Part shown: positions 24,398 through 42,670 of the stretch, piece after piece
Layout of the letters: the number at the start of each line of letters is the position of its first letter
Numbering within the stretch: position 1 is the first letter of the stretch
Assembly: GCA_964529535.1 (NCBI GenBank)
Contig: CAZGXC010000004.1
Location: 1 to 44,962 of the forward strand
Reading direction: 5' to 3'
Origin: an uncultured Hyphomicrobiales bacterium
GTDB lineage: Bacteria > Bacteroidota > Ignavibacteria > Kapaibacteriales > UBA2268
DNA length: 44,962 nt
Notes under the pieces: generated by a model
Database searches by the model: none
The model's input: only the letters and a program-made list of their open reading frames with translations
Told to the model about the DNA's origin: nothing
Program-made: the position numbers and the translations under genes

Positions 24398-25420
24398 ATG
24401 AAAGATATAATACACGATGAAGTAAAAAATATAATAGTGATACAAACGGCGTTTATCGGAGATACTGCCTTAGCTTTGTTCTTCTGTTACAACATTAAAA
24501 TTCTGTTCCCAAATGCTAAAATCACCTTTATTAGCACCCCTGTAGCGGCATCTCTAATTAGATCATGCACCATCATTGATGATTGCATCGCCTTTGATAA
24601 AAGGAAAGAATACAAGAAAATAAGAGATGTAAAGAAATTCGCAGAGAAAATCAATGAATTAAAGCCCGATATAGTCTTCTCTCTTCATAGATCATTGCGG
24701 ACATCTATATTAGTGAAGAATATTAATTCAAAGAAGAAAATTGGATTTTCCAATGCCGCAATGTCCTCCGTTTATGACATTAAATGCTCATATTATAATT
24801 ATCAGCACGAAACCCAAAAGAACAACCAATTGCTGAAGCCATTTGGATACACTGAAAGTGACGAATATCCAATATTGAATTTCAATGGGGAGAGTGAAAT
24901 CGACGGAGCTGACCAGAGTAAAGAATTAATATATTTGTCGCCGGGTTCGGTCTGGGAAACAAAACAGTGGATACCCGAATATTTCAATAAAGTAGCTAAA
25001 GAATTAGAAAACTTAGGATATCAAGTCGTGATTGGAGGAAGCGACAAAGAAATTGACTTGTGTAGCTTTGTGGCGAATGGCACCAATGCGATTAACATTG
25101 CTGGAAAGTTGAAATTAAACGAGACAATCAACGTCATCAAAAAGTGCAAATTAGTAGTCTGCAATGATAGCGCTGCTACGCACATGGCAGGTTTGGCGGG
25201 TATAAAGTGCCTCAGTATTTATGGAGCAACATCGGAGATTTTCGGTTTCTATCCAATTTCGCATGGGGCTAAGACGATAAAAAATGAGCAGATTAATTGC
25301 TCGCCATGTGCCATACACGGAGAAAGAAAATGCCCCTTGGGACACTTCAAATGTATGAGAGGCTTAGCACCAGAGACGGTAATGGAGCGAATAGCCGAAA
25401 TGTTAAAAGAAACGAATTAA
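24398..25420 (+). CDS. Glycosyltransferase family 9 protein (LPS heptosyltransferase-like)
   Basis: IIVIQTAFIGDTALAL..., LSPGSVWETKQWIPEYF, LVVCNDSAATHMAGLAG, and a C-terminal Cys-rich CSPCAIHGERKCPLGHFKCM. Starts 11 nt after the acyltransferase gene. Confidence 0.85.
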   Translation: MKDIIHDEVKNIIVIQTAFIGDTALALFFCYNIKILFPNAKITFISTPVAASLIRSCTIIDDCIAFDKRKEYKKIRDVKKFAEKINELKPDIVFSLHRSLRTSILVKNINSKKKIGFSNAAMSSVYDIKCSYYNYQHETQKNNQLLKPFGYTESDEYPILNFNGESEIDGADQSKELIYLSPGSVWETKQWIPEYFNKVAKELENLGYQVVIGGSDKEIDLCSFVANGTNAINIAGKLKLNETINVIKKCKLVVCNDSAATHMAGLAGIKCLSIYGATSEIFGFYPISHGAKTIKNEQINCSPCAIHGERKCPLGHFKCMRGLAPETVMERIAEMLKETN

Positions 25421-26287: not shown

Positions 26288-26953
26288 ATGGTAGATTCAT
26301 TTGAAAAGAAAAGAATAAAAGTAGTGATCGCAGATGATCACGAAATGGTCAGGTCTGGAATAAAAAAAATGCTGTCAAAATCGCCAGATATTGATTTCTT
26401 GGCAGAAGCAAGAAATGGCAGAGAAGCTATTCACGTGGTAGAGATTTATGAACCCGATATTCTAATTACAGATATTATAATGCCAGGGATGACAGGCATT
26501 GAGGCGGTTAGACAATTAAGAGAAACAAACAAAGAATTAAAGATAATAATGCTTTCAGCATTAGAAGAATACAACTACATCGAAGAAGCAATAAGCGCAG
26601 GAGCCGATGCCTATTTGTCTAAAATAGTCTCTTCGAAAGAATTATTGGAAGCGATTGGCAGAGTTATTGATGGTGAAAGGGTGTTTAGTTCTTCTATAAT
26701 TAATATTATTGAAGATAAATACAGGGAATATGATATTGACAAGGAAGAGCTGATCTCTATTACTCGCAGAGAGCAAGATATATTAAACCAGATAGCACTA
26801 GGAAAGACCAATCAAGTAATCGCAGAGGAGTTGTTTATCTCTAAGCGAACAGTGGAAGTGCATAGAGCAAATATTTTGCAGAAATTGGGCATCAGTAACG
26901 CTGCAGAATTAATGAGATATGCCGTAATGAGCAGATTTAACACATATAATTAA
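26288..26953 (+). CDS. Response regulator transcription factor, NarL/FixJ (LuxR-type HTH) family; no cognate kinase in the window
   Basis: Receiver domain (KVVIADDHEMVRSGIKKML...PDILITDIIMPGMTGIEAVRQLRE...KIIMLSA) and LuxR HTH (ITRREQDILNQIALGKTNQVIAEELFISKRTVEVHRANILQKLG). Confidence 0.9.
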   Translation: MVDSFEKKRIKVVIADDHEMVRSGIKKMLSKSPDIDFLAEARNGREAIHVVEIYEPDILITDIIMPGMTGIEAVRQLRETNKELKIIMLSALEEYNYIEEAISAGADAYLSKIVSSKELLEAIGRVIDGERVFSSSIINIIEDKYREYDIDKEELISITRREQDILNQIALGKTNQVIAEELFISKRTVEVHRANILQKLGISNAAELMRYAVMSRFNTYN

Positions 26954-27177: not shown

Positions 27178-28323
27178 ATGAAAAAATTATTAACAACATT
27201 GGTTTTAGTAGCTTCATTAGCACTAAATGTAAATGCACAACAAACAAAAAACGTTGGAATTGGAACAACAACTCCTAATGCTTCTGCAATCCTTGATTTG
27301 GATGTAAGTGCAGCAGATTTTGGAACTAAATTGGGATTATTAGTCCCAAGAATGACGGCAGCTCAAAGAGATGGCATCGCAAACCCTGCGGAAGGCTTAT
27401 TGGTTTATGTAACCGATGCAACTCCAGCCGGATTCTACTATCGCAGTGGTTCAGCATGGGTTTCTGTCTCTGGTTTAAGAGGTTCAGGAGTTGCGAATCA
27501 AATAGCTTTTTTCTCTGATGCAAGTACAATTAGCACTAATGCTAATTTGGTATATGATGCTTCAGGCAATTTAGTCATTACTAATGGAAATATTGACTTA
27601 TTGTCAATTGCTTCAGGCGCAGCTAAAGAAGTTCATTTCCACGCTGGAAACGCAAGTGTAAATTACGTTGCAGTAAAAGCACCTGCTACATTGGCAGGAA
27701 ATATTGATTTTACTTTGCCAGGCAATGCTGGAGCTACAGGACAAGTTCTTACTAAAACAGCAAATGGAACTGAATGGCAAGCCTCTAATAGCGGTGCTAT
27801 CCCAGCTGGTGCAATGATGCCTTACGCTGGAGCAACTGCACCCGAAGGTTGGTTATTATGCGATGGTCAAGAAGTAAGTAAAACAGATAACTCTGCTTTG
27901 TATGCTGCCATAGGAGATGCTTATGGTTCTCCTTCAGATCAAGCTAATTTCAAGCTACCAAACATGCAAGGAACAATGCCTATCGGTGCAAATGGAGGAA
28001 CCTATACTCTTGGAGCTACAGGCGGGAGCGCTACAACTACTTTAACAACTGATAATTTGCCAGCTCATACTCACCAGTTGGTGGGCGTGCATGTAGGACC
28101 AGGTGCTGCTCCAAGTAATTACAACGCGGCGAATATTAATAATAAGGCAGCACTTTTTGCCAATGAAACTAGTGCGTCATCTATGTTAAATATTTTGACT
28201 CCATATACAACAGATGACAAAGAGAGACCCCTCGCGCCAGAATCAATAAAGAATACAGGTGGAGGTCAGGCAGTAAATACAATGCCTCCATATACAGTAG
28301 TAAACTACATAATCAAAAAGTAA
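27178..28323 (+). CDS. Secreted phage-tail-collar (tail-fibre-like, MdpB-like) domain protein
   Basis: Signal peptide MKKLLTTLVLVASLALNVNAQ. N-terminal NVGIGTTTPNASAILDL...LLVPRMTAAQRDGIANPAEGLLVYVTD block, common in Bacteroidota fibre-like proteins. Collar block IPAGAMMPYAGATAPEGWLLCDGQEVSKTDNSALYAAIGDAYG...FKLPNMQG..PIG...GGS...LT..NLPAHTH and C-terminal GGGQAVNTMPPYTVVNYIIK. Confidence 0.8.
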   Translation: MKKLLTTLVLVASLALNVNAQQTKNVGIGTTTPNASAILDLDVSAADFGTKLGLLVPRMTAAQRDGIANPAEGLLVYVTDATPAGFYYRSGSAWVSVSGLRGSGVANQIAFFSDASTISTNANLVYDASGNLVITNGNIDLLSIASGAAKEVHFHAGNASVNYVAVKAPATLAGNIDFTLPGNAGATGQVLTKTANGTEWQASNSGAIPAGAMMPYAGATAPEGWLLCDGQEVSKTDNSALYAAIGDAYGSPSDQANFKLPNMQGTMPIGANGGTYTLGATGGSATTTLTTDNLPAHTHQLVGVHVGPGAAPSNYNAANINNKAALFANETSASSMLNILTPYTTDDKERPLAPESIKNTGGGQAVNTMPPYTVVNYIIKK

Positions 28324-28391: not shown

Positions 28392-31300
28392 ATGAATAAA
28401 ATTAGATTAAATATAGATAAAAGGGTATGGTGCCTAATACTTGCACTCACGATGTTCAGCGCGAGTATGACATCCTACTCACAAACGGTACCGCTTGTCA
28501 ATATTAAAGGCGGAGCAAAAGTTAGCTTTGCAAATGGCTCTAATGTATTAATTAGAGGCTCGCTAAGCAATGGAACAAATGCTACGTTAAGTTTAAATGG
28601 GACCATCGGCATCTATGGGAATTGGATCAACAACGGAACCCAAACAGCGTCAGCTACATCTCGAATAGAGTTTATTGGTGGCGATAACGCTGAAATTTCA
28701 GGTACCGGTGGTAGCACCCAATTTTATAGTATCTTGGTTAATAAAGATACGCGCCAGGTTGTGCTTTCTCTGAATACAGCACCTGCTACAAGCACTCCAG
28801 CTGGATTTGTGGAACTTCGCAAAGGTAGCTTTAAGGTAATAGGTGAATACACATATACCAATTCCTTCCTTGCGAAAGTTGATGGCATCTTATCTATACC
28901 TGGAACAGCTGAATTTTGGCTTGAAAACCCAAATGCAGTGGTCGAGGGGCAATTAGCTGATTTAATTTTAAATGGCAAGTTGAAAATTACAGATGGCACA
29001 TTTAATGCATCGCAAGCATTGCTATCCACAGTTACAGAGCAAGGAACAGAGTTAGAAATTGAAGATGGAACATTGAATGTAGGGCAAAGACTCTCATTGA
29101 ATAATGCTTCGACTACTACTCCTCTAAAATTTACTCAAACAGGTGGAACAATCAATGTAGCAACTGCAGGTGTTCAAACTAATACGAATTCAATTTTTGA
29201 ATTCATTAGCCCAGAAGCAGTCGTTAATATTAGCGGTGGCGAAATTGTATTGAAAAATGAAAATAGCACTGCTAACGTAATAGATTACAACTTCGCAGTA
29301 AATAACGCTACCGTAACCGGTGGCACTCTGAAAATAGATGCAGCAGCCGCAAGTCAAACATTTAGCATTAAATCTGCAATTCCAATAGGGAATTTATTGA
29401 TGACTGGCACAAATAATCCTGTAGTTCAACTATCAGGCAATAACTTATCTGTATTAAAAGATGTTACTATCGCTGGTGCTGGAGAAGATAGAGTGAAGCT
29501 AAATGGTTTCGATCTAAGCTTAGGCGGTGATTGGAATCATAATATCGCACAAGCAAATGGACTTAACCAAGGCACTAACAATGTAATATTTACTGGTAAT
29601 AAAGTCCAGAAGATTACTGCAACTACTATTGATCCGGTTTTCACGACTTTAATCAATAATAAAACTGGCGAAAAAATTGTAATGCACAAACCGATGAGCA
29701 TTACAAGTAAATTGAAATTGGTCGGAACAACTGCAATAATTGATATGCAGTCTAACAATCTTACGATTGATGCAAGTGCGAAAATATTTGCAGATGTATC
29801 TGAAACGAATGAAAGCGTTACAGCATTCAATTCATCAAAATATATAATAAATTCAGGATCAAATACCGACCCGCTTCTCGGAGCTAAGTTAATTAGAAAA
29901 TTGCCAGCGCTTGAATTAGGTAGCATAGCAAATATTGCTTTCCCGATAGGAACACCAAACGCGTATTCCCCTGTGCAAATAGATCTATTCCAAACTTCAA
30001 CTACATTAGCTACTGACGCAAATATAGGCGTAAAAGTTGTGCCATTGGAGCACCCAGGCGTTGAAGTAAGCAATAAATCTCTAAAAAAATATTGGAATGT
30101 ATCTACTAGTGGTATAACATTAACAAATGATAAAGCTGAAATAAGATGCTTTTATGATGCAAATGACGCTGTGGGCGGAGGTAGCGAAGGTTACTACCGT
30201 GTAGCAAAATATACTCCAGAATGGAATACACCAGCAGCTTATTGGCAAAGCGAGCCAGGAAGAGATTCTAATTATGTAGATTTTGGTTTGCATTATTTAG
30301 TATCTAAAGGATTGAATAATATCGATGGTGATTGGACTGCTGCCGAGCAAAAAGCAATCTCTGGATATTATTATTCAAGACAGAACGGCGATTACAACGA
30401 TCCAAACACCTGGTCGAAAATCGCTTTTGGTGGAGACGCTGCACCAACAGCTCCTAATAAGTTGAGTGACAGAGTTTATATACAAGAGAATGTGGTAACA
30501 GTTACAGAAAATACACCTGCGGCTAAGTTAATTGCTGTGCAGACCGGAAAAGATGGACGCGGAGATGGAGTATTGAAAATACAAAATAACTTCGTCGTGG
30601 TTGGTGATACATTCAAATTAGAAGCAAAAGCAAAATTATACATTGGGTCAGAAGAGGGAATTAGTGAATCCGGAGCAACTGGAAACGTCCAAACTCAAAA
30701 CAGATTCTTTAGCAAAGACGCTCATTATTTCTATTACGGTGATTTAGCACAAATAACTGGAACGGGAATCCCAACGCAAGTAGCAAAACTTACTATTGAT
30801 AAAACTGCTACTGCAAAAGTTACTTTGAGCAGAAACATACTTATTTCTGATGAATTCCATTTAATAAATGGTATCTTCGATATGTCCTCCTCTACGCTTG
30901 ATGGATTAACTGTTGACAGAAAATTTAAAATGGATGATGGTGAGTTTATCGTTAATTCGGCATTCCCAATTAATTATACTGCTCCTACATTCACAAATGG
31001 ACAAATTACTTTCGATGGAACTGGAAATATAACTATTCCATCATCTGCTTCTGAAACTCCTATCGCTCAATACTATAACCTAAAAATAAGTAGTGCGAGC
31101 AGATCTGGTAATATCACTTTATCCAGAGATGGAGAAATTAAAATTGCACACAACTTAGATATTTCAAGTCTAAAATTTGCAGATAATAGATATAGATTCT
31201 TCACAGATGGATCAACAGTTCGATTCAATAGCACAATAGCTGAGCAAAGTATTCAATTTGCTCCAAACTCTCCAGCAGATGAAAATTGCTACTTGAATTA

Positions 31301-34300
31301 TTATAACTTGATTATTGATGGTGCTAATACTGTTAAGATTACAGGAACAACTTCATCAACGGGCTTAAATATTCTCAATAAGCTGACTATAAACAATGCA
31401 GCTGCTACATTTAATGCAAATGGATTTGGTATTAATATACATGGCGATTGGGTAAATACAGCTGGAACCTTTGTGCAAGGAACAGGAACTGTAAAATTCG
31501 TTTCAGACGTTGCCTCTATAGCTACAAATATTAAGAGCAGAAGCATGACTGATAATCCATTTAATAATGTAATTGTAAGCGGACCAGGAACTGTGAAGCT
31601 AAATAACGATATTTTAATTAATGGTAACCTAACATTTGAACAAGATGTCGTTTTAAGTGCTCTAAGCCATAATGTAAATATTAAAGGTGATTGGAAAAAC
31701 ACAAGCGGAATATTTGATATCGGAACTTCAAACGTGATATTTAGTGGGACAAATCCGCAAAATATAGAAAAAACAACAGGAAATGCAACTTTTAATAAGC
31801 TAACTATTCAAAATCTAAATAATGTATATGCTGCCAACGTTGGAAGCGATACATCTGGAGTTATTATAAATAACGAATTAGCACTTAATAGCGGTAATCT
31901 TGTATCGCACGTAGGAAATAAATATAAATATGTGCAGATAAACAATCTTATCACAAGATCAGGTGGCGGTTTCGTAGATGGTGAATTAAGAAAGAAAATA
32001 TCAGCTGGTGCTGTAACAAAAGTATTTGAAGTAGGATATAATACATCTTATACACCAGTTACTTTTGATGTAACTGGAACAGCCGGTTCCGCTGGCTTCG
32101 TTGGAGTGATAAGTGATACTATCAACGCTTCATCTAATATTATTAGATGGAATGCAAATAGCCCAACTGCTATTATTCCTGCTAATTCTAAAATTGAACC
32201 AACAGGACATATTGCAAGAAGATATGGAATTACAATTCCAGTAGGTTCTTCATTCAATCTATCTAATACAAGATCATATAGCGCGAAAGTGGAATTCGTT
32301 CCCGGAGACGTAAAAGGAACAGTTAATCCACAACAATTTACTATGTCTGTGCTGACCAATCCTAATATACCAACTTGGGTATATCCTTTCTCTTATGAAT
32401 ATTTGGTCCGTCCAGTAATTACTGAGAAAACAACTACTTCTACTAAAATGCAAGCTCTGAAAGATTTCGGAAGTATTATAGTAGGTGTTCCATCTATGAT
32501 TACATACTATTCAAGACAAACAGGTAATTGGAATGATCCACAAAGCTGGTCTCTTGAGCAGTATGGCGGAACAGCAGCTCCTGGCTATCCCGGCCAAACT
32601 GAAGTGTATAGAGCGTATATCGGAAACGGGCATACAATTACAATGGGTAGTAATATCACAGTAAATGCTTCATCTGCATCTGGTATTACAGAAAATTCTG
32701 CTGTGATTGTTGATAGTGCTAACGGCGCTGGAACTTTGCTTATGGGAGGATACGTAATAAATGGAACTGGTGAGTTTAGATTGTTGAAATATTCTACTCT
32801 AAGTATTGGTAGCTCCGCTGGTATCATGTTAGCTGGTAATAATACAGGAAACGTGCAAACTACAACAAGAAATTATAACTATGGAAATCATAACAGAGGT
32901 ATTTTCATATATACCGGGGCGGGCAATAGCTCAACAGGAAATGGATTGCCAAGTTCAGTGCCAAATAGTGCTACTCCAGATACATTGTCGAAGCTTATTA
33001 TAGATAAAACAAGTGGAATCCTTACGCAATGGGGAGTTGCCGGAGGCAAAAATGTCCTTCGTGTCTTTGATGAATTAAGGATAATAAAAGGTAATTTTAA
33101 ACTTTCCGATATAGCTGATGCTGCTTTAGTCCTTTATGGAGATATGACATTAGATTTAAATGCAACATTTACTCCTAATTCAAGAACAGTATGGTTCAGA
33201 GGAGAGAAACAACAATATATACAAGCTGGTGCATACAATCAACCTATTGCATTTGATAGGATTGAAATTGATAAGGTAATGAATGCCGGAAATATTACAT
33301 TAAAGGGAAATACAAATATCAACGTAACTACATTGAATTTTAGCAGTATAAATAAAGTTTTAATAGATGCTAATACTCATTCTTCTGTGGCAAATCCAAT
33401 TTATGTTTTTGCTGGAACTGTTACAGGTGCAGGACAAATTACAGAGACAACATCTGGTGGATGGGTATTGGGCGATATGAGAAGAAATGTGGCTGCTGGT
33501 GCTGCCACTGTGAAATTTGAAACTGGAACTCCTTTGTATTATGCTCCTTTTGAATTGTCTTTTGCTAATGGTACCGGTAGCACTGCAGGTGTATTGTCCG
33601 GGGCGAGTATTACTGGAGAGCATCCAATGCTGGGAACAGGGCCTCTTGTAAATTATCCCGTATCAAGAGAAAGACAATTAACAGTATATTGGAAACTTAA
33701 GCGACCGGTTGGCTCAGGCTTTGTTAGAGGCAATAGAGCTTATACTCTAAGAACTTATTCGCATTCATCGCATGCTGTAAAGACGGATTGTATTGGTTGT
33801 GCGGATCTATCATTTTACAGAGGGGGGAGTATAAATAATAATTATGCTAATAATCAGTGGCAGGGCTTGTTCAATAATAATTCCAGGACTAATTCTGATA
33901 CTGAGGGTTTTGACTGCAGTGATACAAGATGGCTTACCACTGAAGAGTATAATATACCTGCCAACATGAGGTTTACCTATGGTGGATCTTCATGCACAGA
34001 TGATGAAAATATTTTAGATAGAATTACGGTTAATTCAGTTGGCTCAGATATACCTTTTGGCTCTCTTACGATTGATGGCTCAAATGGTGATGTCCTCCTC
34101 GCTGATTTTGTTGCAGGGAATAGAAATACTCTTAAATATTATTCATTCTATTCAATAAAAGATGGAGATTGGTCTGACCCTACTACATGGTCAACAGAAG
34201 GTTATAATGGAACAGTAAATGCAGCAGCAACTGATTATTCTGCGGGTGATATTCGTCCTGTCCCTGCTCGTCAATATGATGTGGCTTACATTGGTAATGG

Positions 34301-37300
34301 AAAGAAAGTAAGAGCTGATGTGTTAATAGGTACTAATCTATTAACTCCTACATCTTTATTGGGTACATGTGTGAAGGTGGAAAATACAGGAACACTTGAT
34401 TTGGGAACTACTTCTCTTAGAGGTAATCAATTTACTGCAGATCCAGGCTCAACATTGATTATAGGTGCTAATGATGGACTTAATAGAAATCAATATTTGG
34501 GCAACGTGCAATTATATTACAATTCGCCAATAGCAGTTGCAGATAGTGTTAATATTGTTTATTCTCCACGAGGTAGGACTGTAAATAGACATCAAATACC
34601 TATTGCTAATTATGATGCAACAAGCAGCTATATAACATCTGTAAGATTTTATTCAGCAACAGTGTCTAATATCTTAACATATACTTCTGGTGATAGATAT
34701 AGATTAGGTTCATACGCATGTATTCTTATGCCAGCAAGTCTGAATGTTAACTCTGGTTCTACCTACAGCGTAACAATTACTGCAAATGATAGTAGAAGAC
34801 GAACTTATAGTGTCTCATATTTGACGTATGCTGGAGCGTGGGTGGAGATAGCTACGGTTACTGATGTATGGAATTCAACAAGTTCTTCTAAAACATTAAA
34901 CTTTACAATCCCTGCAGATTTAGAAACAGGCACAACACTGCTTAGAGTCCAAACGCTTAATAATAGAACTTCCGCAGGTGAAGCTGAATTATATACTATA
35001 CACGTAACTAAACCAGATTATGTAGCTAATCAGGTGCCAGGAACAGCTTTGCCATCAGTGCTAAAGAGCCTTACAATGACGACGGATAATGAACCAGCGG
35101 CGTCTCAGACCTTTACATTAAATAAAAGCCTGACGATAGTGGATTATCTCAAATTTGATAAGGGAAATTTTGTCAATGGAGCGAATACTCTTAATGTAGC
35201 TGGCGATATAATCAGTAATAATGCAAATACATTTAATGCTGTCGGTGGGCAGGTCAATTTAATAGACGTTCAGAATTGTGATATAAAGGGTAATGCGTCT
35301 ATAACATTTGATAAGATTAATCTCCGCAAAAAAGACGCAATAATTAACTTAAATACTGACGTTAATATTATAAGTGAATGGAGAGTAGATACATTGAACT
35401 CCGTTAACTTGGCAGATAGTAGAACATTAAAATTTGAAGCAAACGCAGGCATCTATGGCTATCCAGGCAATAATAAAGCAATGATAAAAGTAAGTGGTTC
35501 AGAAAATACTGGAAAGATGATAAAAACATTCTCATCCAATCTAGCGACTGGCAATCGTGGCTTCGAATTCCCATTTGGTATTGATACTACTTATAACCCA
35601 GCAAACATTAGAATGACAGGCGCTTACGCAGCTAATAACTCGCTTACAGTTCAGTTGTTTAATAGGAAGCATCCTGCAGCCTTAAACGGAGACATATTAA
35701 AGAAGTATTGGAAATTAGAGACACAAGGAATTAGCAACATAACAGCTTCCTCATTAGGTTTCGGCTATAGGAGTGCTGATACAAGTGGCGATATGAAAAA
35801 GTATATACCAGCAAGATATGCTTCAGGTGCATGGGAAATTGACTTAGGGACAAATCCAATAGGCAAGCCGGATACAATAAACATTACCAATGAATCAGGC
35901 GTTTCAGGCGAATGGACTACTGGTATTCCTACTACATATTTCACAAATAGAATATTCTATTCAAGGAATACTGGCAGCTGGGACGTGAAAAGTAACTGGT
36001 CAACGGATGCAACACTAAAACATACAGGTAAATCAGCCGCCTACTATCCTGGTGAATTATATGAAAACGACGTAGTCAATATTGATGGTCATACAATAAC
36101 ACTTAATGATCCAAAATTATTAATACTTGATTCAATCAGAATTGGCGGGACTAATAATAATACCGTTGCTGGAAGGTTGCTGTTTGGAAATGTAGCTAAC
36201 AATCAGATGTTTTTACGCTCAGTATTTTTAGATGCAGATAATGGCGAAATAGCATCAGAGAATGCAAATTCAGGATTAGATACAATGATATTGAGCAGTC
36301 TGTTTGTCAACAAATCTACAGGAACTGGCTTCAATGGAGCATCTAATTTACCATCGAAAGTAATATTAAAATTCGCAGGTGAAGGCAATAGCACTATTTC
36401 AGGCGAAGGAAATTATACATCTATTGGCGATATAATTCAGAAAAAAGGTGGCGGATTTAGTGACACATTGAAAATCGAATCTAATAGCTTTGCATTAGCA
36501 ACTGAAAGCAAATTAACGGGAGCAATTACCCCTGAATCAGGAATAATTCGCAATCAATCAGATAAAGATTTGTATTTATCAGCTACAGGTGTAGATGTAA
36601 ATATGGGATTAAATTCAGGGATTGATTGTAAGAAACAAACTACATACACAAGGTCAAGCTTAATAACAAACACTAATACGACTATCAATGTTGATGGCGG
36701 AAACTTGAGTGTAGGAACTGCTGCGAATGGGCATATGCTCTATAAAACAGGAACAACAGTAACATTAACAGACGGGAAAATAGAAGTAGCCGGTGCATTT
36801 GCCCGCTTTAACGAAAATGCTTCCGTGGATTTAACGATAGCAAATAAAAATACAAACAACTTTATCGTCAATTCAATTGGCAACACATCAACAGATAAAA
36901 TAGGCTTTGATTTAAGCAACTCAGCCTCTTCAATTAGCATGTCAGATGGTAGAATACTTGTAGCTAACGGCGGTGGGACTACCAGCACTCCATTCGATTT
37001 AAGAATTAACGCAATGGGAGGTTCTGGTTTAACAGGCGGACTTATCATAAGTGGTGTCGAAGATAAAACGCCAGCTGGCACGAATATTAAAATAGGTGGC
37101 TCTACACCTCTATATGACTTAGCTTTCATTAATGGTGTGGATAATGTTAGAATATCTACGAGCATCTTAGAGCAAACCATGAAGATAAAGAATAATTGGA
37201 CAATTACAGATAGACATGACTTCAATTTAAATGGAAATACCATCAGTCTTGGTGGTAACCTTACTAACAATGGAGGATTTACAGCTGTTCCAGCTGGTGC

Positions 37301-40300
37301 TACAACTGGTGCATGGCAATTAGAGCTTGACGGGGCAGGTGACCAGACTATAAGCGATAATAGCGAAAATGGATTAAATATCCATAACTTTAGAGTGAAT
37401 AAACCCACAGGAGACGTTATATTAGGAGCAGATACAAAACTGTGGGTTCGTAGCACCCTTGAATTCTCAACAGATAATAATGCGATTATCAAAACTGGTG
37501 TTACCGATATGAGCAAATATGTAATAGTTGCTCCAAAAGAAGGCGTGAATAGCGTAGCCACGGTGATTAGAGCAGGAAAAGGTCACGTAGATGGATATAT
37601 GGGATCATGGATACCAGCAACTGCCTCATCGGTTAAGTTTGATATTGGTGGTTCAACAAATGCAATCTACAGACCTGTAGAATTCCAGACAGTAGGAGCG
37701 AACACTGGCGGTATCGTAATGGCTAAATATAATAATACTGCTCATACGACCCTTCCGTCTATCGCAAGCTCTAAATTAGACAAATACTGGACAGTTATAC
37801 CTCACACAGATCCGACTAAAGCATTTAGCTTAGCTGAAGGACAAAGCTATAACTTAGCTGTAAATTATGATAATACAGAATTAACAGCTGGAACAAACGA
37901 GCTTGAGTTAGAACAAATAATGAGAACTCCAAGCATCGCTTTGAATGCTATTGGAACTTGGGCTTCGCTAAATACAAATGAAAAAAGAGCTAATTATTCT
38001 AAATCATTTGCTAATACAAACTTCGGTGACGTAATATTAGGAATACCATTAGGAATAACATATTATAGTATCAATAGTGGCGACTGGAATAACCCTACAA
38101 ACTGGTCTACAACTGGCTACGATGGAACATCAGCAGCAGATTATCCTCGTTTAGCGACAGATTTCGTAAAAATCGGTAACGGTAAGAAAATTGTAGTGCC
38201 TTCAACTTTAACAGATTTAAGGGTAAATTCAGTAGTAGTCGAGAAGTACAATAATGTCCCCGGCGCATTGCAGATTAATGGAAAATTCAATGGAATATCC
38301 GGAAGATCATTTGTTCTTTCAGATGATTGCACAATCGGAGTTCAGCATATGCACGGAATTAATTCACTAATGGAAGGATCTCGCGGGGCAATTATCACAA
38401 ATTCGAGAACATTTGGCACAAGCCGCTACATCTACAATAGTAGTGAGGGTGCTCAAATAACAGGTAATGCAATCCCTAATACAATCAAGACTTTAATACT
38501 TAACAATTCAACAGCTGGTAACAATTCATTGTTCCTCCATAATTCAGACATAAGTGGAGAGTTGGCAATTCAAGATACATTAGCTATCGAACAAGGCTTA
38601 TTTAATACATCAGATAGAAATATCAGAATCGCAAAAGCCGTTCAGATTGGTAAACAAACCAATGAAGGTGTGCTTGAAGCTGGAACATCATCATTTATTT
38701 TCCAAGATGGTGCAGATAAGTATATAGACATAGCGAATCTTGGCGGTATTAGATTCTATCGTATAGATTTAAACAATACTAAACTGCATGCGAATAGAAC
38801 AATTGAAGCAGAAGGAGCATTGCAACACGTATATGTTAAGAATAAGTTGAATTTTGCTGGAACAAGTGCCTTATTCATTCTCGGAGACGCTGTTAACTTA
38901 ACAGTCGAATCCTCTGATCCACAGGCAATTACAGGTTTTGATGGCAATAAATTCGTTCAAACATCTGTTACATCCGGCAGCTTAATAAGAGAAGTAAAAA
39001 ATAACTCTATTTATACATTCCCAATAGGCTCACTCGAAAACTCAGTTCTACAATATGCAAAAGCAGATCTTACATTAGCTAATACAGGCAATAGCGGTAG
39101 AATTGGTCTTAGAACTTCATGGGGCCAAAACTCAAATAACGCACACAAATATTTAAGTGTAAATGCAAATGCTGGCTATATGAAGAGATATTGGGCAGTC
39201 GATAGCGTAACTATGCAAATCAATGGCAATCTAAAGTTCTACTACAACGAAGGAGAATTTACAACAAATTCTACAGAAGATGATATGAAGAGAATTGTAA
39301 GATGGAGACCAGCTAAAGAAAGAGCGGAAGGTGCTTGGTCATTCCCTGTAACTATTGCTAATTTAGATAAAGCTGCCAATACATTTGGCACAGGCATTAG
39401 TTTTGACTATACAGGATTCACTGGCGACTGGACTTTAGGAAATGACAGAACATTCAGAAGAATATTCTATAGCCGCCAAGACGGAAACTGGAATAGTCCT
39501 GATAGCTGGACATTTAGTGATACACACAGCGGAGATATTGCAGGCATAGGGCTATTCCCTAACTCAGCAGGAGACTCGGTAGTAATAGGTGGTTCAAAGA
39601 TCATTACATTAAACATTAACAATCCATTTGCAAATATAATGGACGTGGGTATCCAATTAGGAAACACTGCCGAAAACGCTGGCATACTTAAAATTACTAA
39701 CGAAAATATATTAAATGGTACGTATTTTAACTTTATTCCTGGATCATCATTATATATTGGTTCTGCGAATGGTATTTCAGCGGAAGGAACAAATTCTGGA
39801 AATATTCAAACTACAAATAGAATATTTGACCAAGCAGGAAATTATTACTACTCAGGAACAAGTAATCAATCATTAGGAAATGGATTACCTAATACAGTAG
39901 CCGGATTAGGAATAGCAAATACAGGAACCGAGAATAACAATACCGTAACTTTTGATAGAAACATAAGTATTGGGAAGCTATTCACAGTCATTTCAGGAAC
40001 TGCTGACATCGTAGACCACACTGTTACAACAACAGCGACTGATGCCACTATGTCAATGTCTGATGGTGCATTGCTTAGAATTGGCGCAAGTAATACGCCA
40101 AATACAGCATTAACAGGCTTTAAAAATTACCTATTACACAATAATAGCACGATAGAGTTCTATGGAACTAATCAGGATATTTCAAATGTTCCTCTTAAAT
40201 TCTATGATCCAAATAATGCAGACGAGACTTTACAAGGATATGGTAACGTGTTGATGAGCAACGGAACAAGCTATATTGGTAACAAAATTCTTCTGAGAGG

Positions 40301-40436
40301 TAATTATACTATTAATAATGCATCAACAGGTATTACTATTCATGATGGAACTGATGCAGTAAGAGTCCTGAAAAATGTGACTATTAACGGCTCGCTGATG
40401 AATAAGGGCATAATTGATGTAGGAAATTGCGAATAA
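28392..40436 (+). CDS. Giant (4014 aa) secreted protein, predicted beta-helix/beta-sandwich adhesin-like, built from six divergent super-repeats
   Basis: Uninterrupted 12-kb ORF. Signal-peptide-like N-terminus (VWCLILALTMFSASMTSYSQ). Repeated rung-like motifs recur throughout: GDW.N.G.F..GT..V.F.G...Q.I; [FY]..[LI].[IV] 'FNKLTIQN/FYSILVNK/YYNLKISS'; GN[VI]QT..R.F....Y.Y.G. No T9SS CTD by eye. Confidence 0.9.
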   Translation: MNKIRLNIDKRVWCLILALTMFSASMTSYSQTVPLVNIKGGAKVSFANGSNVLIRGSLSNGTNATLSLNGTIGIYGNWINNGTQTASATSRIEFIGGDNAEISGTGGSTQFYSILVNKDTRQVVLSLNTAPATSTPAGFVELRKGSFKVIGEYTYTNSFLAKVDGILSIPGTAEFWLENPNAVVEGQLADLILNGKLKITDGTFNASQALLSTVTEQGTELEIEDGTLNVGQRLSLNNASTTTPLKFTQTGGTINVATAGVQTNTNSIFEFISPEAVVNISGGEIVLKNENSTANVIDYNFAVNNATVTGGTLKIDAAAASQTFSIKSAIPIGNLLMTGTNNPVVQLSGNNLSVLKDVTIAGAGEDRVKLNGFDLSLGGDWNHNIAQANGLNQGTNNVIFTGNKVQKITATTIDPVFTTLINNKTGEKIVMHKPMSITSKLKLVGTTAIIDMQSNNLTIDASAKIFADVSETNESVTAFNSSKYIINSGSNTDPLLGAKLIRKLPALELGSIANIAFPIGTPNAYSPVQIDLFQTSTTLATDANIGVKVVPLEHPGVEVSNKSLKKYWNVSTSGITLTNDKAEIRCFYDANDAVGGGSEGYYRVAKYTPEWNTPAAYWQSEPGRDSNYVDFGLHYLVSKGLNNIDGDWTAAEQKAISGYYYSRQNGDYNDPNTWSKIAFGGDAAPTAPNKLSDRVYIQENVVTVTENTPAAKLIAVQTGKDGRGDGVLKIQNNFVVVGDTFKLEAKAKLYIGSEEGISESGATGNVQTQNRFFSKDAHYFYYGDLAQITGTGIPTQVAKLTIDKTATAKVTLSRNILISDEFHLINGIFDMSSSTLDGLTVDRKFKMDDGEFIVNSAFPINYTAPTFTNGQITFDGTGNITIPSSASETPIAQYYNLKISSASRSGNITLSRDGEIKIAHNLDISSLKFADNRYRFFTDGSTVRFNSTIAEQSIQFAPNSPADENCYLNYYNLIIDGANTVKITGTTSSTGLNILNKLTINNAAATFNANGFGINIHGDWVNTAGTFVQGTGTVKFVSDVASIATNIKSRSMTDNPFNNVIVSGPGTVKLNNDILINGNLTFEQDVVLSALSHNVNIKGDWKNTSGIFDIGTSNVIFSGTNPQNIEKTTGNATFNKLTIQNLNNVYAANVGSDTSGVIINNELALNSGNLVSHVGNKYKYVQINNLITRSGGGFVDGELRKKISAGAVTKVFEVGYNTSYTPVTFDVTGTAGSAGFVGVISDTINASSNIIRWNANSPTAIIPANSKIEPTGHIARRYGITIPVGSSFNLSNTRSYSAKVEFVPGDVKGTVNPQQFTMSVLTNPNIPTWVYPFSYEYLVRPVITEKTTTSTKMQALKDFGSIIVGVPSMITYYSRQTGNWNDPQSWSLEQYGGTAAPGYPGQTEVYRAYIGNGHTITMGSNITVNASSASGITENSAVIVDSANGAGTLLMGGYVINGTGEFRLLKYSTLSIGSSAGIMLAGNNTGNVQTTTRNYNYGNHNRGIFIYTGAGNSSTGNGLPSSVPNSATPDTLSKLIIDKTSGILTQWGVAGGKNVLRVFDELRIIKGNFKLSDIADAALVLYGDMTLDLNATFTPNSRTVWFRGEKQQYIQAGAYNQPIAFDRIEIDKVMNAGNITLKGNTNINVTTLNFSSINKVLIDANTHSSVANPIYVFAGTVTGAGQITETTSGGWVLGDMRRNVAAGAATVKFETGTPLYYAPFELSFANGTGSTAGVLSGASITGEHPMLGTGPLVNYPVSRERQLTVYWKLKRPVGSGFVRGNRAYTLRTYSHSSHAVKTDCIGCADLSFYRGGSINNNYANNQWQGLFNNNSRTNSDTEGFDCSDTRWLTTEEYNIPANMRFTYGGSSCTDDENILDRITVNSVGSDIPFGSLTIDGSNGDVLLADFVAGNRNTLKYYSFYSIKDGDWSDPTTWSTEGYNGTVNAAATDYSAGDIRPVPARQYDVAYIGNGKKVRADVLIGTNLLTPTSLLGTCVKVENTGTLDLGTTSLRGNQFTADPGSTLIIGANDGLNRNQYLGNVQLYYNSPIAVADSVNIVYSPRGRTVNRHQIPIANYDATSSYITSVRFYSATVSNILTYTSGDRYRLGSYACILMPASLNVNSGSTYSVTITANDSRRRTYSVSYLTYAGAWVEIATVTDVWNSTSSSKTLNFTIPADLETGTTLLRVQTLNNRTSAGEAELYTIHVTKPDYVANQVPGTALPSVLKSLTMTTDNEPAASQTFTLNKSLTIVDYLKFDKGNFVNGANTLNVAGDIISNNANTFNAVGGQVNLIDVQNCDIKGNASITFDKINLRKKDAIINLNTDVNIISEWRVDTLNSVNLADSRTLKFEANAGIYGYPGNNKAMIKVSGSENTGKMIKTFSSNLATGNRGFEFPFGIDTTYNPANIRMTGAYAANNSLTVQLFNRKHPAALNGDILKKYWKLETQGISNITASSLGFGYRSADTSGDMKKYIPARYASGAWEIDLGTNPIGKPDTINITNESGVSGEWTTGIPTTYFTNRIFYSRNTGSWDVKSNWSTDATLKHTGKSAAYYPGELYENDVVNIDGHTITLNDPKLLILDSIRIGGTNNNTVAGRLLFGNVANNQMFLRSVFLDADNGEIASENANSGLDTMILSSLFVNKSTGTGFNGASNLPSKVILKFAGEGNSTISGEGNYTSIGDIIQKKGGGFSDTLKIESNSFALATESKLTGAITPESGIIRNQSDKDLYLSATGVDVNMGLNSGIDCKKQTTYTRSSLITNTNTTINVDGGNLSVGTAANGHMLYKTGTTVTLTDGKIEVAGAFARFNENASVDLTIANKNTNNFIVNSIGNTSTDKIGFDLSNSASSISMSDGRILVANGGGTTSTPFDLRINAMGGSGLTGGLIISGVEDKTPAGTNIKIGGSTPLYDLAFINGVDNVRISTSILEQTMKIKNNWTITDRHDFNLNGNTISLGGNLTNNGGFTAVPAGATTGAWQLELDGAGDQTISDNSENGLNIHNFRVNKPTGDVILGADTKLWVRSTLEFSTDNNAIIKTGVTDMSKYVIVAPKEGVNSVATVIRAGKGHVDGYMGSWIPATASSVKFDIGGSTNAIYRPVEFQTVGANTGGIVMAKYNNTAHTTLPSIASSKLDKYWTVIPHTDPTKAFSLAEGQSYNLAVNYDNTELTAGTNELELEQIMRTPSIALNAIGTWASLNTNEKRANYSKSFANTNFGDVILGIPLGITYYSINSGDWNNPTNWSTTGYDGTSAADYPRLATDFVKIGNGKKIVVPSTLTDLRVNSVVVEKYNNVPGALQINGKFNGISGRSFVLSDDCTIGVQHMHGINSLMEGSRGAIITNSRTFGTSRYIYNSSEGAQITGNAIPNTIKTLILNNSTAGNNSLFLHNSDISGELAIQDTLAIEQGLFNTSDRNIRIAKAVQIGKQTNEGVLEAGTSSFIFQDGADKYIDIANLGGIRFYRIDLNNTKLHANRTIEAEGALQHVYVKNKLNFAGTSALFILGDAVNLTVESSDPQAITGFDGNKFVQTSVTSGSLIREVKNNSIYTFPIGSLENSVLQYAKADLTLANTGNSGRIGLRTSWGQNSNNAHKYLSVNANAGYMKRYWAVDSVTMQINGNLKFYYNEGEFTTNSTEDDMKRIVRWRPAKERAEGAWSFPVTIANLDKAANTFGTGISFDYTGFTGDWTLGNDRTFRRIFYSRQDGNWNSPDSWTFSDTHSGDIAGIGLFPNSAGDSVVIGGSKIITLNINNPFANIMDVGIQLGNTAENAGILKITNENILNGTYFNFIPGSSLYIGSANGISAEGTNSGNIQTTNRIFDQAGNYYYSGTSNQSLGNGLPNTVAGLGIANTGTENNNTVTFDRNISIGKLFTVISGTADIVDHTVTTTATDATMSMSDGALLRIGASNTPNTALTGFKNYLLHNNSTIEFYGTNQDISNVPLKFYDPNNADETLQGYGNVLMSNGTSYIGNKILLRGNYTINNASTGITIHDGTDAVRVLKNVTINGSLMNKGIIDVGNCE
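30369..39512 (+). repeat. Protein-level super-repeats inside the giant ORF, anchored by six [FY]YS-x3-G-x-[WY]-x2-[PK]-x2-W-[ST] motifs
   Basis: Anchors: YYSRQNGDYNDPNTWS 30369-30416 (aa 660); YYSRQTGNWNDPQSWS 32505-32552 (aa 1372); FYSIKDGDWSDPTTWS 34146-34193 (aa 1919); FYSRNTGSWDVKSNWS 35955-36002 (aa 2522); YYSINSGDWNNPTNWS 38061-38108 (aa 3224); FYSRQDGNWNSPDSWT 39465-39512 (aa 3692). Each is preceded by a ~150-aa unit containing P.G....Y.P...[KR]YW......G[DE]WT.G, and most are followed by ...GN[VI]QT..R.F....Y.Y.G...G.G[LI]P. The repeats are divergent; I saw no nucleotide-level identity. Confidence 0.8.
34611..35025 (+). other. GEVED-like domain inserted in one super-repeat of the giant protein
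   Basis: ...YAGAWVEIATVTDVWNSTSSSKTLNFTIPADLETGTTLLRVQTLNNRTSAGEAELYTIHV resembles the layout I associate with the GEVED domain (W.D.N.dg.F........F.IP.....G.T.(M/L)RV..........GE.EDY.v.V). It is present only once in the protein. Confidence 0.4.
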
Positions 40437-40519: not shown

Positions 40520-42670
40520 ATGACAATCAGAACAACTAAAAGTCTCCTTATTGGAGCAATTGCAAGCTTAGGCTTAGCATTGGGCACAGCCGACGCGCTA
40601 GCTCAAACAACAGATGCTACTGGTGTATTTAACACTAGCGAAAGTAGTAGCTACGTAGTTCCTTCTTCAACATCAACTGCGGGTGGTGGCGTTATTCGTA
40701 TGAGAAGTAAAACCGGAGCAATTACAGGGAAATACGGTGCCACTGCAACTAATAGATTTCCAGGAACAGTTATCTGGATGTGTACACAAACAATAACGCC
40801 ACCGGCAGAGGGTGGCACATTGTTCGTTACTGATATGAAGACAGATGGCTCCGGGGATAAGACATTTACTGGAAAATACGATGTTTCTGGAACATATCAG
40901 CCAGGAGATGTAGCAACTGGTAAGCGTGTATACACTGGAACAACATTTACATTTTCAGGAACTTCTTCAGGAACTTCCCAGATTATTCCTTCAGAAAACA
41001 CTAATAATGGTGGTGGATTTGATAATGTAGAATTATCTGGAAGCCAAGCAAAAACGACAGGTAGCTGTGTAGCGGCAGGAACAGCTGGATTAAGTATCAA
41101 TACTTTGACGCAAGCTGGAGGAGCATTTACAAACCAGACTAATTTAGCATTGGGTGCTAATACTCATTCAGTAGATAATATGGTTAATGCATCTACTGAT
41201 TGCGGTATTGAATTAGCTAAAAATGGAATATTAAATATTAAGGATTTAACTAATACTACTGGTAAACTGAAACTTAACGAACAAGCAACAGTCAATTTGT
41301 CTGGAACATTCATACGCACTGCTGGCGAAATGGATTTTGCCTGTGCCTCTACTTTTAATTACACAGGTACCGGTGCACAAACTATCGTAGCTACTGATGC
41401 GCTAGCAACTAATGGTTTCGCTTCATACGGTAACCTTGGTATTTCTGGGGGTGCTAAAACAGCTGGTGGCGACTTCTCTGTTTGTGGTAACTTCGCTGGT
41501 AATGCGAATTTGGATAATGATGAGCATACAATGACAATGTTAAACGGAAATCAAAACAGAATTTCTTACGGAGATCCTTCTACTGGTATCTATGAAGTAA
41601 CTGGTAAGATCAAATATGAGAATATAGATGCTAATAAAGAATTAACATTTAACAACAAAGGAACTCAAATTATATTTGAAGCAGCACCAAAGACATTCAC
41701 ATTAGACGTAAGAAGTGCAACTGCACCAGTTAAAGCAGGTGCTGACAACTTTAAGACAGATAGAGATATTAACAGAAGAATTAATGTAGCATATACTCTT
41801 AATGGAACACCTGGTAATCTAAGTAATGGTAAAATATCTTCATTTAAAACACTATGGACTGCAGCAGACGTAACAAACATTGCTGGATCAGTAGATTATA
41901 CAAAACTAAAAATAGCTGAATTATACTCGACTACAAAAGAAAGCAAGAAATTAGTTCGCTTCGGTGCTAGCACTACAGTAAGTGCGTCAGATAGAACAAT
42001 CACTTATGCTGGCGGAGCTTCTGGAGCTGAAGGTTTAGCATTGGTTGCAGCAACAGCTCCAAGCGATCCAGTAACTGTAGAGGAAAACAAGATGTTATTC
42101 AATGGATCAGACATCGTGTTATCAACAAAAATACAAAAAATCACATCTATTGTTCATGGTCGTTGGTCAAACCCATTGACTTGGGATGAAGGTCACGAGC
42201 CTTACGCTTACGAAGACGTAGATATCAAAACATCTGTATGGGTTGGTGATGATCGCGCATTGTTCGGAACTGAATCTCAATATGCATACGCAGTGAACGA
42301 GAGAGCTACTGGAGCACCTGGTGTAGCACCAAGTGCAGCTGCTAACTCTATAACAATCTTGGATATTCAAGATGCAGGTCTTTATATCTCTAATCAAGAT
42401 GGTGATATGTATAAAACAAATGGAAGTGAAGTAGTATTTGCAACAGTAATGCAAGGAAATATTAAATCAGGTATCTTTAACAAAAACGCAAGAACAACAG
42501 ATTCTGATATTAATCCAATGCTTAATACTGCTAGGGTAAATGGTATCTTTATTTCTGCTGTAGTAGGCGGAGACACTCCTACATATACTCCAGTATTGGG
42601 AGCATCTCAGTTTGATAACCAAGGATTTATGCATAATGCTGGTATCATTGAAGTTGGTACTTGTCAATAA
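40520..42670 (+). CDS. Secreted 716-aa paralogue of the giant protein (beta-helix + beta-sandwich + G-x-W-x2-P-x2-W unit), with the same C-terminal motif
   Basis: GGAG lies 9 nt upstream. Signal peptide LLIGAIASLGLALGTADALAQ. Contains HGRWSNPLTW (42155-42184, aa 546). Ends FMHNAGIIEVGTCQ (42626-42667), compared with LMNKGIIDVGNCE in the giant. Confidence 0.85.
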   Translation: MTIRTTKSLLIGAIASLGLALGTADALAQTTDATGVFNTSESSSYVVPSSTSTAGGGVIRMRSKTGAITGKYGATATNRFPGTVIWMCTQTITPPAEGGTLFVTDMKTDGSGDKTFTGKYDVSGTYQPGDVATGKRVYTGTTFTFSGTSSGTSQIIPSENTNNGGGFDNVELSGSQAKTTGSCVAAGTAGLSINTLTQAGGAFTNQTNLALGANTHSVDNMVNASTDCGIELAKNGILNIKDLTNTTGKLKLNEQATVNLSGTFIRTAGEMDFACASTFNYTGTGAQTIVATDALATNGFASYGNLGISGGAKTAGGDFSVCGNFAGNANLDNDEHTMTMLNGNQNRISYGDPSTGIYEVTGKIKYENIDANKELTFNNKGTQIIFEAAPKTFTLDVRSATAPVKAGADNFKTDRDINRRINVAYTLNGTPGNLSNGKISSFKTLWTAADVTNIAGSVDYTKLKIAELYSTTKESKKLVRFGASTTVSASDRTITYAGGASGAEGLALVAATAPSDPVTVEENKMLFNGSDIVLSTKIQKITSIVHGRWSNPLTWDEGHEPYAYEDVDIKTSVWVGDDRALFGTESQYAYAVNERATGAPGVAPSAAANSITILDIQDAGLYISNQDGDMYKTNGSEVVFATVMQGNIKSGIFNKNARTTDSDINPMLNTARVNGIFISAVVGGDTPTYTPVLGASQFDNQGFMHNAGIIEVGTCQ

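Follow-up and report, generated by a model that had tools for sequence, protein, structure and literature searches.

Giant beta-helical surface proteins are already known. Autotransporter adhesins such as Ag43, EspP, Hap and Hbp have a long right-handed beta-helix with decorating domains, and G8 domains, as in PKHD1, CEMIP, TMEM2 and bacterial G8 proteins, start with a W...W / P..G..V.I pattern that leads into a parallel beta-helix. SprB, the giant gliding adhesin of Flavobacterium johnsoniae, is a repetitive protein of several thousand residues encoded in an operon with accessory envelope proteins. How does another gene of this size compare with these systems? The gene in question (28392..40436, forward strand) lies in a stretch of 44,962 nucleotides (nt), hereafter the window, namely positions 1 to 44,962 of contig CAZGXC010000004.1 in GenBank assembly GCA_964529535.1, labelled as an uncultured Hyphomicrobiales bacterium and placed by GTDB in Bacteroidota, Ignavibacteria, Kapaibacteriales, UBA2268. 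It encodes a protein of 4014 amino acids (aa), referred to below as the giant. What is new in it is a fixed set of six junctions between a beta-sandwich and a following head domain, a sandwich domain that has no model so far, a C-terminal motif shared with the next gene, and a conserved operon. We read the giant as a Sec-exported, very long all-beta protein of anciently multiplied modules, most likely a cell-surface fibre or adhesin and the first gene of that operon, and we give this reading a probability of about 0.6.

Module architecture of the giant protein

An earlier note on the window had described the giant as six divergent super-repeats, each with an anchor motif. The open reading frame (ORF) was confirmed by the ORF list and its translation, and the anchors were found exactly where that note had placed them. 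The expression [FY]YS...G.[WY]..[PK]..W[ST] matches at aa 660, 1372, 1919, 2522, 3224 and 3692 (spacings of 712, 547, 603, 702 and 468 aa) and nowhere else in the giant; it has no match in the 716-aa and 686-aa proteins encoded by the next two genes, and none in 2000 shuffles of the giant. Each anchor is the start of a head of about 200 aa, and a beta-sandwich of about 190 aa stands directly N-terminal of every anchor. In the alignment the sandwich units end in GDWT.G or FG..I.G.P, in agreement with the sandwich-like units ending G[DE]WT.G or FG..I.G.P that had been noticed before each anchor, and a hidden Markov model (HMM) of the sandwich finds exactly six copies in the giant (E 8e-41 to 1.6e-32). 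The features of the gene are listed below, where M1 to M6 are the modules that the anchors open and S0 to S5 the sandwiches.

28392..40436, + strand: giant ORF, 4014 aa, ATG start, uninterrupted (ORF list and translation)
28392..28481, + strand: probable Sec signal peptide, about aa 1-30 (MNKIRLNIDKRVWCLILALTMFSASMTSYSQ), read by eye
28482..29750, + strand: helix segment 0, aa 31-453, headless; rung motif G[DN]W.N..G at aa 379; BLASTP against M1 rungs E 1.3e-4
29751..30356, + strand: beta-sandwich S0, aa 454-655; sandwich HMM E 8e-41
30354..30977, + strand: head M1, anchor aa 660 (nt 30369-30416); regular expression, alignment A1, head HMM start aa 657
31887..32495, + strand: beta-sandwich S1, aa 1166-1368; sandwich HMM E 2.6e-39
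32490..33131, + strand: head M2, anchor aa 1372 (nt 32505-32552); regular expression, alignment, head HMM start aa 1368
33447..34130, + strand: beta-sandwich S2, aa 1686-1913, with a Cys-containing insert; sandwich HMM E 2e-35, alignments
34131..34520, + strand: head M3, truncated, anchor aa 1919 (nt 34146-34193); regular expression, alignment, head HMM start aa 1916
34866..34964, + strand: degenerate GEVED-like insert in M3, aa 2159-2191; Pfam GEVED 14.1 bits
35397..35936, + strand: beta-sandwich S3, aa 2336-2515; sandwich HMM E 2.3e-34
35940..36560, + strand: head M4, the most degenerate, without the GNVQT motif, anchor aa 2522 (nt 35955-36002); regular expression, BLASTP, alignment, head HMM start aa 2518
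37464..38048, + strand: beta-sandwich S4, aa 3025-3219; sandwich HMM E 2.2e-34; AlphaFold about 11 strands, model residues 1-190
38046..38660, + strand: head M5, anchor aa 3224 (nt 38061-38108); regular expression, alignment, head HMM start aa 3220; model pLDDT mostly 85-96
38874..39455, + strand: beta-sandwich S5, aa 3495-3688; sandwich HMM E 1.6e-32; AlphaFold model
39450..40070, + strand: head M6, anchor aa 3692 (nt 39465-39512); regular expression, alignment, head HMM start aa 3688
40380..40433, + strand: conserved extreme C-terminal motif (...NGSLMNKGIIDVGNCE), common to nearly all of about 33 giants

From N- to C-terminus the order is signal peptide, helix 0, S0, five head-helix-sandwich units (M1-M5), head M6, the last helix and the conserved C-terminus. 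The helix segments are 423, 510, 317, 422, 509, 275 and 326 aa long, and T, N, G and S are abundant in the protein, which has just 13 Cys. The N-terminal 659 aa form a module without a head, and the last module has no sandwich. The six super-repeats were thus rightly seen as products of duplication, but the giant is better described as seven predicted right-handed parallel beta-helix segments joined by six sandwich-plus-head junctions; all segments but the first would open with a head, and all but the last would then run into a sandwich.

How similar are the modules to one another? The giant was cut at the anchors and the pieces were compared pairwise by BLASTP. M1 and M6 are the closest pair (E 7e-30, 36% identity over 204 aa), followed by M1-M2 (E 2e-20, 30% over 300 aa), M2-M6 (9e-17), M1-M5 (1.5e-11), M2-M5 (5e-11) and M3-M5 (1.6e-10), while M4 is the weakest and most divergent module (E 1e-6 to 2e-5). 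These significant matches bear out the internal duplication that had been proposed; BLAST of the whole protein against itself returned the identity match only. At the DNA level, likeness within the gene is limited to the 47-nt stretch that codes for the anchor (62-74% identity), and Tandem Repeats Finder gave nothing relevant, so that the earlier remark on the lack of a nucleotide-level repeat holds. Two finer motifs, which had been assigned to the region after each anchor, are found in part of the modules. M1, M2 and M6 have a clear GN[VI]QT..R motif; M5 has an altered form of it (GAIITNSR), M3 a truncated one and M4 none, and the GDW.N.G.F rungs are confined to the N-terminal segment and M1 (aa 379, 1018 and 1099).

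Scans of the giant with Pfam and NCBIfam gave nothing above threshold, and an exact-sequence look-up of the protein returned no record. For the six sandwiches, the Pfam scan gave nothing below E 0.01 and matched no carbohydrate-binding module (CBM) family; sequence searches of the PDB with profiles of a two-module segment, of the head and of the sandwich gave nothing meaningful. Structure prediction followed by Foldseek, which the earlier note had suggested, was run on aa 3030-3900 (S4, M5 and the head of M6) with AlphaFold2 and 11 orthologous rows. The model has a mean pLDDT of 84 and is entirely beta, with two strand-rich sandwich regions and, between them, short and evenly spaced strands. 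Against the PDB, the best Foldseek match is Ag43 (E 2e-3), and EspP, EspC, Hbp, PL6 alginate lyases and phage tailspikes also appear, all of them weak; against the viral library, phage 'parallel beta-helix repeat' proteins match at E 3e-5 to 3e-4. All long alignments of the model are to right-handed parallel beta-helix proteins, and as far as the model goes this fold class is likely for the giant's segments.

The anchor had been compared with the start of autotransporter-associated beta-strand repeats. This comparison was not borne out, as no PATR or autotransporter match was found and G8 matches fall instead in the heads of relatives of the giant that carry one or two modules (the single-module relatives described below). 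The G8 pattern fits the G-x-W-x5-W anchor better than the autotransporter-associated repeats do. On the whole giant, Pfam G8 (PF10162) has no match at E<=1 and does not reach its gathering score of 22.9 bits; when the giant's head segments were scanned, one of ten matched, at E 0.053. The head profile matches the relatives P0095, P0007, P0094, P0102 and P0105 at E<=1e-6, and in these five proteins G8 falls inside the head region with 21-29 bits, P0095 (29.2) and P0007 (24.2) exceeding the cut-off; in 12 of the 17 relatives scanned G8 is absent. Judged by sequence, the relation of the head to G8 is therefore borderline. The head works like a G8 unit in preceding a predicted right-handed beta-helix with a W...W / P..G..V.I-type pattern and is probably related to it, and we do not assign it to the family. 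There is also a difference in use: the G8 proteins named above have the unit once, at the start, whereas the giant has it six times internally, with its own heads below significance.

M3 may hold traces of a second known domain. The match of GEVED (PF20009) to aa 2159-2191 of the giant has 14.1 bits (E 0.084) against a cut-off of 24.4 bits. At the equivalent position in P0008 (aa 2159-2235) GEVED scores 58.9 bits (E 9e-16), and in P0016 (aa 2446-2523), also within module 3, it scores 90.8 bits (E 1e-25). Because of these scores the insert of the giant looks decayed, and one of its segments would thus bear the remnant of a GEVED domain.

The family and the age of the duplication

Is the giant a single case, and are its repeats recent? 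An exhaustive profile search with the six heads and four homologous pieces (E<=1e-3) matched 3699 proteins. Among them are about 33 giants (clusters at 50% identity), which are 3474-5352 aa long and have 6-8 heads placed almost as in the window protein; a word-index search with a 901-aa piece of the giant, in which the index saturated, had found only 7 proteins. With P0012 (3997 aa) the giant gives a single BLASTP high-scoring segment pair that covers aa 1-4014 at 50% identity. Its heads start at aa 657, 1368, 1916, 2518, 3220 and 3688, and those of P0012 at 653, 1357, 1893, 2504, 3206 and 3672. P0018 (38%), P0019 (37%), P0025 (34%) and P0026 (31%) are also collinear from end to end, and identities over the giants range from 27 to 50%. 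The other giants, including P0012, P0157 and the orthologue in Ca. Kapaibacterium sp. Ch6 (CP058732), have the same module positions, C-terminal motif and downstream genes. Nothing essential differs from the window protein, although some have extra modules between M5 and M6 or an intact GEVED domain. Database names of family members are 'hypothetical' or 'GEVED domain-containing' (for example P0157, MGE5481005.1).

For the age of the copies, 72 heads from 12 six-module proteins were grouped. For 72/72 heads the nearest neighbour was the positional counterpart from a different protein, and in a neighbour-joining tree with midpoint root five of the six positional classes were monophyletic. M6 did not form a clade, possibly as a result of the midpoint root lying inside this class. 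Another 21 giants also have M1 to M6 in this order, in some cases with one or two additional modules before M6. The module phylogeny that the earlier note had in mind, run here on the heads, therefore groups copies by position and not by protein. Together with the kept order, this indicates that the duplications predate the radiation of the family and that the copies are no longer interchangeable. The earlier view of an ancient duplication agrees with this grouping and with the collinear orthologues, which rule out a recent repeat expansion. This gives a scenario in which a head-helix-sandwich module would have been multiplied long ago, and six positional copies would have been inherited as fixed, individually conserved units in Kapabacteria, Ignavibacteria and related lineages.

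Some variation on this theme was seen. A subfamily of 4075-5352 aa (P0008, P0009-P0011, P0013, P0014, P0020, P0023, P0024, P0030, P0032-P0034 and P0036) has, between M5 and M6, one or two modules more; their heads share only about 30% identity with any of the six classes and make up a seventh positional class. On contig L001 (9561-20856) an orthologue of about 30% identity, collinear over aa 372-4011, is broken by six or more frame changes into at least seven pieces and surrounded by many toxin-antitoxin genes; from its sequence it would be either a pseudogene or the product of an error-prone, frameshift-rich assembly. The single-module relatives (such as P0007, P0095 and P0105) match the head profile with E down to 1e-40 and share the GN[VI]QT..R.Y motif and the G.v.G.lrk...F.vG...Y.P sandwich. 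They have one or two modules in about 1000 aa and a PF18962 end, whereas the giant has seven segments and no PF18962.

Where are the giants found? A locus scan with one genome per species returned 30 loci, all from metagenome-assembled genomes (MAGs). Most of them carry the label Ca. Kapabacteria/Kapaibacterium, Ignavibacteria/Ignavibacteriota or Chlorobiota; a complete genome, of Ca. Kapaibacterium, is among them. About 10 records have other or uninformative labels (Chloroflexota, Hyphomicrobiales, Bacteroidota, 'bacterium'). L011, L013, L015, L016, L018, L024 and L029 are titled 'Chloroflexota bacterium' or 'uncultured Hyphomicrobiales bacterium' though they carry an operon of the Kapabacteria/Ignavibacteria type, and these two names look as if the MAGs had been mis-binned or mislabelled. 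Judging from these loci, the giant family is restricted to Kapabacteria, Ignavibacteria and close relatives.

The operon and the C-terminal motif

The genes next to the giant are as follows.

27178..28323, + strand: 381-aa protein with a phage tail collar domain (Pfam Collar E 1.4e-20), 68 nt upstream of the giant
40520..42670, + strand: 716-aa protein, next gene, ends ...NAGIIEVGTCQ, syntenic in 21/30 loci
42891..44951, + strand: 686-aa protein, third gene, best conserved of the operon (33-68% identity in synteny); AlphaFold pLDDT 79

In 21 of the 30 loci, namely all those that reach far enough downstream, homologues of the 716-aa and 686-aa proteins come after the giant; by label or by inference these 21 loci are from Kapabacteria, Ignavibacteria or Chlorobiota. 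After the 686-aa homologue there usually come a protein of about 430-450 aa, a WD40 protein (in about half of the loci) and an OmpA-family protein. The window ends 11 nt past the 686-aa gene, and a contig from Logan run SRR25638277 (L033) with an identical 686-aa protein extends the operon by a 442-aa protein, an OmpA-family protein, a response regulator and a CHASE/PAS histidine kinase. On L033 (5514-8111), which belongs to the window's lineage, and on L003 (20553-22601), the closest relative, the operon is thus succeeded by a response regulator together with a CHASE/PAS/HisKA sensor kinase; they may be a regulatory link. A scan for sigma-70 promoters and terminators told little: 63 promoter-like sites were counted where 72.6 were expected, and no + strand terminator lies between the genes.

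On the upstream side, the 381-aa protein, which also has a weak Gp10_C match, is preceded by a LuxR-type response regulator (26288-26953, + strand). Homologues of the 381-aa protein stand upstream of the giant in L003 and L027, with similarity of the N-terminus only in L002 and L031. Homologues of it and/or of the LuxR-type regulator are upstream in L003, L027, L031 and L002 and not in most loci, and it is uncertain whether the 381-aa gene is part of the operon.

The earlier note had taken the 716-aa and 686-aa proteins as paralogues of the giant's modules, and this stands in part. With M6 the 716-aa protein has rungs in common (E 1.7e-5); it also bears the C-terminal motif and, at aa 547, a single anchor-like G.W....W. 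Some orthologues of the 686-aa protein match the second half of the head profile. However, the sandwich HMM has no match in either protein, and by sequence they appear to be relatives in building style rather than full module paralogues. The AlphaFold model of the 686-aa protein has a beta-helix at about aa 40-290, a sandwich at about aa 300-460, an Ig-like sandwich at about aa 520-630 and a poorly modelled dockerin-like tail; the protein has a weak Dockerin_1 match (E 0.0065), and Foldseek on the model gave no match at E<=0.001. A C-terminal [FY].[IW]NNR motif is conserved among the 686-aa proteins as well.

The operon protein of about 440 aa has a tail of a different kind. Its last 95 residues or so resemble the C-terminal domain of cargo of the type IX secretion system (T9SS), and a profile of them has matches at the C-terminus of many single-module relatives, among which is the PF18962-bearing P0007. 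The same profile matched no orthologue of about 4,000 aa, with a non-significant E of 0.29 to the 6436-aa P0065.

How, then, do the giants end? Nearly all of the about 33 giants end in N.G.[IVL][EDQ][IVL]G plus 0-3 residues, and the few exceptions are divergent variants. The consensus is N.GvIEIG, the window giant ends ...NKGIIDVGNCE, and the 110 or so residues before the motif are also well conserved (LLIRGNL...daL.V.gnviN). The C-terminal profile of the giants matches the last 18 residues or so, at the exact C-terminus, of 17/20 716-aa orthologues, though each of these matches is weak (E 7e-4 to 1). Within the window only the giant and the 716-aa ORF carry the motif. At the other end of the third protein, the mature N-terminus of the 686-aa protein (about aa 27-50, F/LDNTGGK..N.GTIRV..GQVK) is nearly invariant among orthologues (alignment A4), and its LDNTGGKI.N.GTIRV resembles the giants' C-terminal N.a.I.N.G.IEIG rung.

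The motif may be a mere shared terminal rung, or it could be a docking or sorting element. A speculative idea, to which we give little weight, is that the giant and the 716-aa protein share an undescribed C-terminal tag for export or attachment, and that the operon is a dedicated builder of a long composite surface fibre. The giant, the 716-aa and 686-aa proteins, the 440-aa protein with its T9SS-like tail and an OmpA-family anchor would be its components, and given the likeness of the 686-aa N-terminus to the giants' C-terminus, beta-helix termini might stack end to end. In function such an operon would correspond to the SprB/SprF arrangement, though made from unrelated parts.

Possible function and route to the surface

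We infer Sec export, a surface location and a role as fibre or adhesin from the signal-like N-terminus, the beta-helix class, the single-module relatives, which are T9SS cargo (PF18962 in 16/17 of those scanned), and the envelope proteins of the operon. If the segments stack coaxially, about 2780 helix residues at about 22 residues and 4.8 A per rung would give a fibre of roughly 50-60 nm. Residues 1-30 have a basic N-terminus followed by a hydrophobic core, and the other proteins of the operon would serve to position the giant on the outer membrane or to fasten it there. Several genes of the window, listed below, point the same way.

279-1334, + strand: T9SS cargo, 351 aa, with a near-threshold SprB repeat and PF18962 (domain scan)
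2278-3219, + strand: weak PorV-like protein, 313 aa (E 2e-4, below cut-off)
7663-9132, - strand: 489-aa protein with PD40, CarboxypepD_reg and C-terminal OmpA (domain scan)

The domain set of the last is, we take it, that of the T9SS component PorE. From the T9SS cargo, PorV-like and PorE-like genes and the T9SS-tailed relatives, the lineage very probably has a T9SS. In related loci WD40 and OmpA-family proteins are encoded separately in the giant's operon, versus the combined set at 7663-9132. The rest of the window also holds genes of envelope biogenesis, which flank the region. BamD (YfiO), an LpxC-FabZ fusion, LpxA, a lipid A acyltransferase and a GT9 heptosyltransferase are encoded at 4486-7514 and 23478-25420 (both + strand). 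A 1648-aa ORF without a Pfam match (15958-20904, + strand) stands directly after a SusC-like TonB-dependent receptor (12573-15920), which is itself preceded by an extracytoplasmic function (ECF) sigma factor (10267-10842) and a zf-HC2 anti-sigma-like protein (10897-12369).

Several points weigh against the reading of the giant as a surface fibre or adhesin and should be noticed. The signal peptide was identified by eye. No annotation supports a function, as the database names show. The Foldseek TM-scores are low (0.1-0.16), because the query has several domains. Scans with Pfam and NCBIfam recognised no T9SS C-terminal domain (PF18962/TIGR04183, Por_Secre_tail, or CHU_C/TIGR04131), SprB repeat, beta-barrel, two-partner secretion (TPS) domain, lipobox or sortase signal in the giant that would account for a route across the outer membrane. 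No binding or catalytic site was identified, and no search aimed at a catalytic constellation was made.

What else could the gene be? That the 12-kb ORF is an assembly artefact, made from collapsed or chimeric repeats or from fused genes, has a negligible chance. No DNA-level repeat able to mislead an assembler was found, GC content is even along the gene, a relative of 4099 aa was recovered at the same length in more than 10 separate assemblies, and more than 30 assemblies made independently, a closed genome among them, have orthologues of equal length and module order; for practical purposes the artefact is ruled out. Membership of type V secretion, as an autotransporter passenger or a HecA/FHA-like two-partner adhesin, would fit the best PDB fold matches, which are the passengers of Ag43, EspP, EspC and Hbp, and the JGI name of one 686-aa homologue, 'adhesin HecA-like repeat protein'. 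It is nevertheless very improbable, as Pfam and NCBIfam show no autotransporter beta-barrel, PATR repeat (PF12951), TPS domain or haemagglutinin repeat at E<=1, the C-terminus of the giant has by sequence helix rungs rather than a barrel, and no TpsB/Omp85 gene was seen among the neighbours scanned. With barrel, PATR, TPS domain and Omp85 neighbour missing, membership of the autotransporter or TPS families is ruled out. What the giant has in common with Ag43, EspP, Hap and Hbp is the predicted long right-handed beta-helix with decorating domains; it differs from them in having no C-terminal beta-barrel, PATR repeat or autochaperone domain, and in hosts of the Fibrobacteres-Chlorobi-Bacteroidetes (FCB) group, where related proteins use the T9SS.

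The fold matches also include PL6 alginate lyases, phage tailspike depolymerases and pectate-lyase-like phage proteins, and G8, which falls inside the heads of relatives, precedes the beta-helix in the hyaluronan-degrading CEMIP and TMEM2. One could thus think of a multi-enzyme array for the degradation or remodelling of glycans, with helix modules as polysaccharide lyases, hydrolases or depolymerases and sandwiches as CBMs. We consider this unlikely. The giant and two orthologues have no lyase or hydrolase match in Pfam or NCBIfam, the weak fold matches are such as the beta-helix class in general would give, G, W, P and N make up most of the invariant columns in the alignment of orthologues, and the sandwiches, as said, match no CBM family. 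Another explanation is that the giant is T9SS cargo with a new C-terminal signal, working like SprB, with the products of the downstream genes as attachment partners; the conserved last rungs and the IEIG motif, shared with the 716-aa protein, would then stand in for the usual C-terminal domain. In its favour, nearly all giants and, in most loci, the 716-aa protein terminate in the motif; the type A T9SS cargo among the single-module relatives, the T9SS-like-tailed and OmpA-family proteins of the operon and the T9SS-related genes of the window speak for it too. On the other side, the giant has neither PF18962 nor a CHU_C/type B domain nor an SprB repeat, no PorP/SprF-like gene was recognised among the downstream operon genes, the matches to 716-aa proteins are weak when taken singly, and the motif may be merely the last beta-helix rung because N.G.I.I-type rungs are common throughout these proteins. 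We hold this explanation as a doubtful one, though it and the enzyme array are the main alternatives. Membership of the SprB family itself is ruled out by the missing repeats, type B domain and PorP/SprF neighbour. The giant and SprB are alike in being very long, repetitive proteins of the same superphylum, encoded with envelope partners and, if the giant is indeed located there, displayed at the cell surface. They differ in that the giant lacks PF13573 repeats, the type B C-terminal domain and an SprF/PorP-like neighbour, and its repeats are large, unequal and fixed in position.

What does the giant mean for the bacteria that carry it? Kapabacteria and Ignavibacteria are widespread and have few cultured representatives. 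The gene of about 12 kb and its operon are conserved (27-50% identity for the giants, 33-68% for the 686-aa partner), and thus the operon is among the largest conserved investments in these small genomes; the closed Ca. Kapaibacterium genome has 2.66 Mb. The sandwich of about 190 aa and, in effect, the head have no Pfam model, and the head alone occurs in about 3700 protein clusters. If the C-terminal motif proves to be a sorting or docking signal, known surface display in the FCB group would extend beyond the type A and type B domains of the T9SS. Finally, the fixed order of six ancient modules is an unusually clean case of repeats that have turned non-interchangeable, which points to position-specific roles of the modules.

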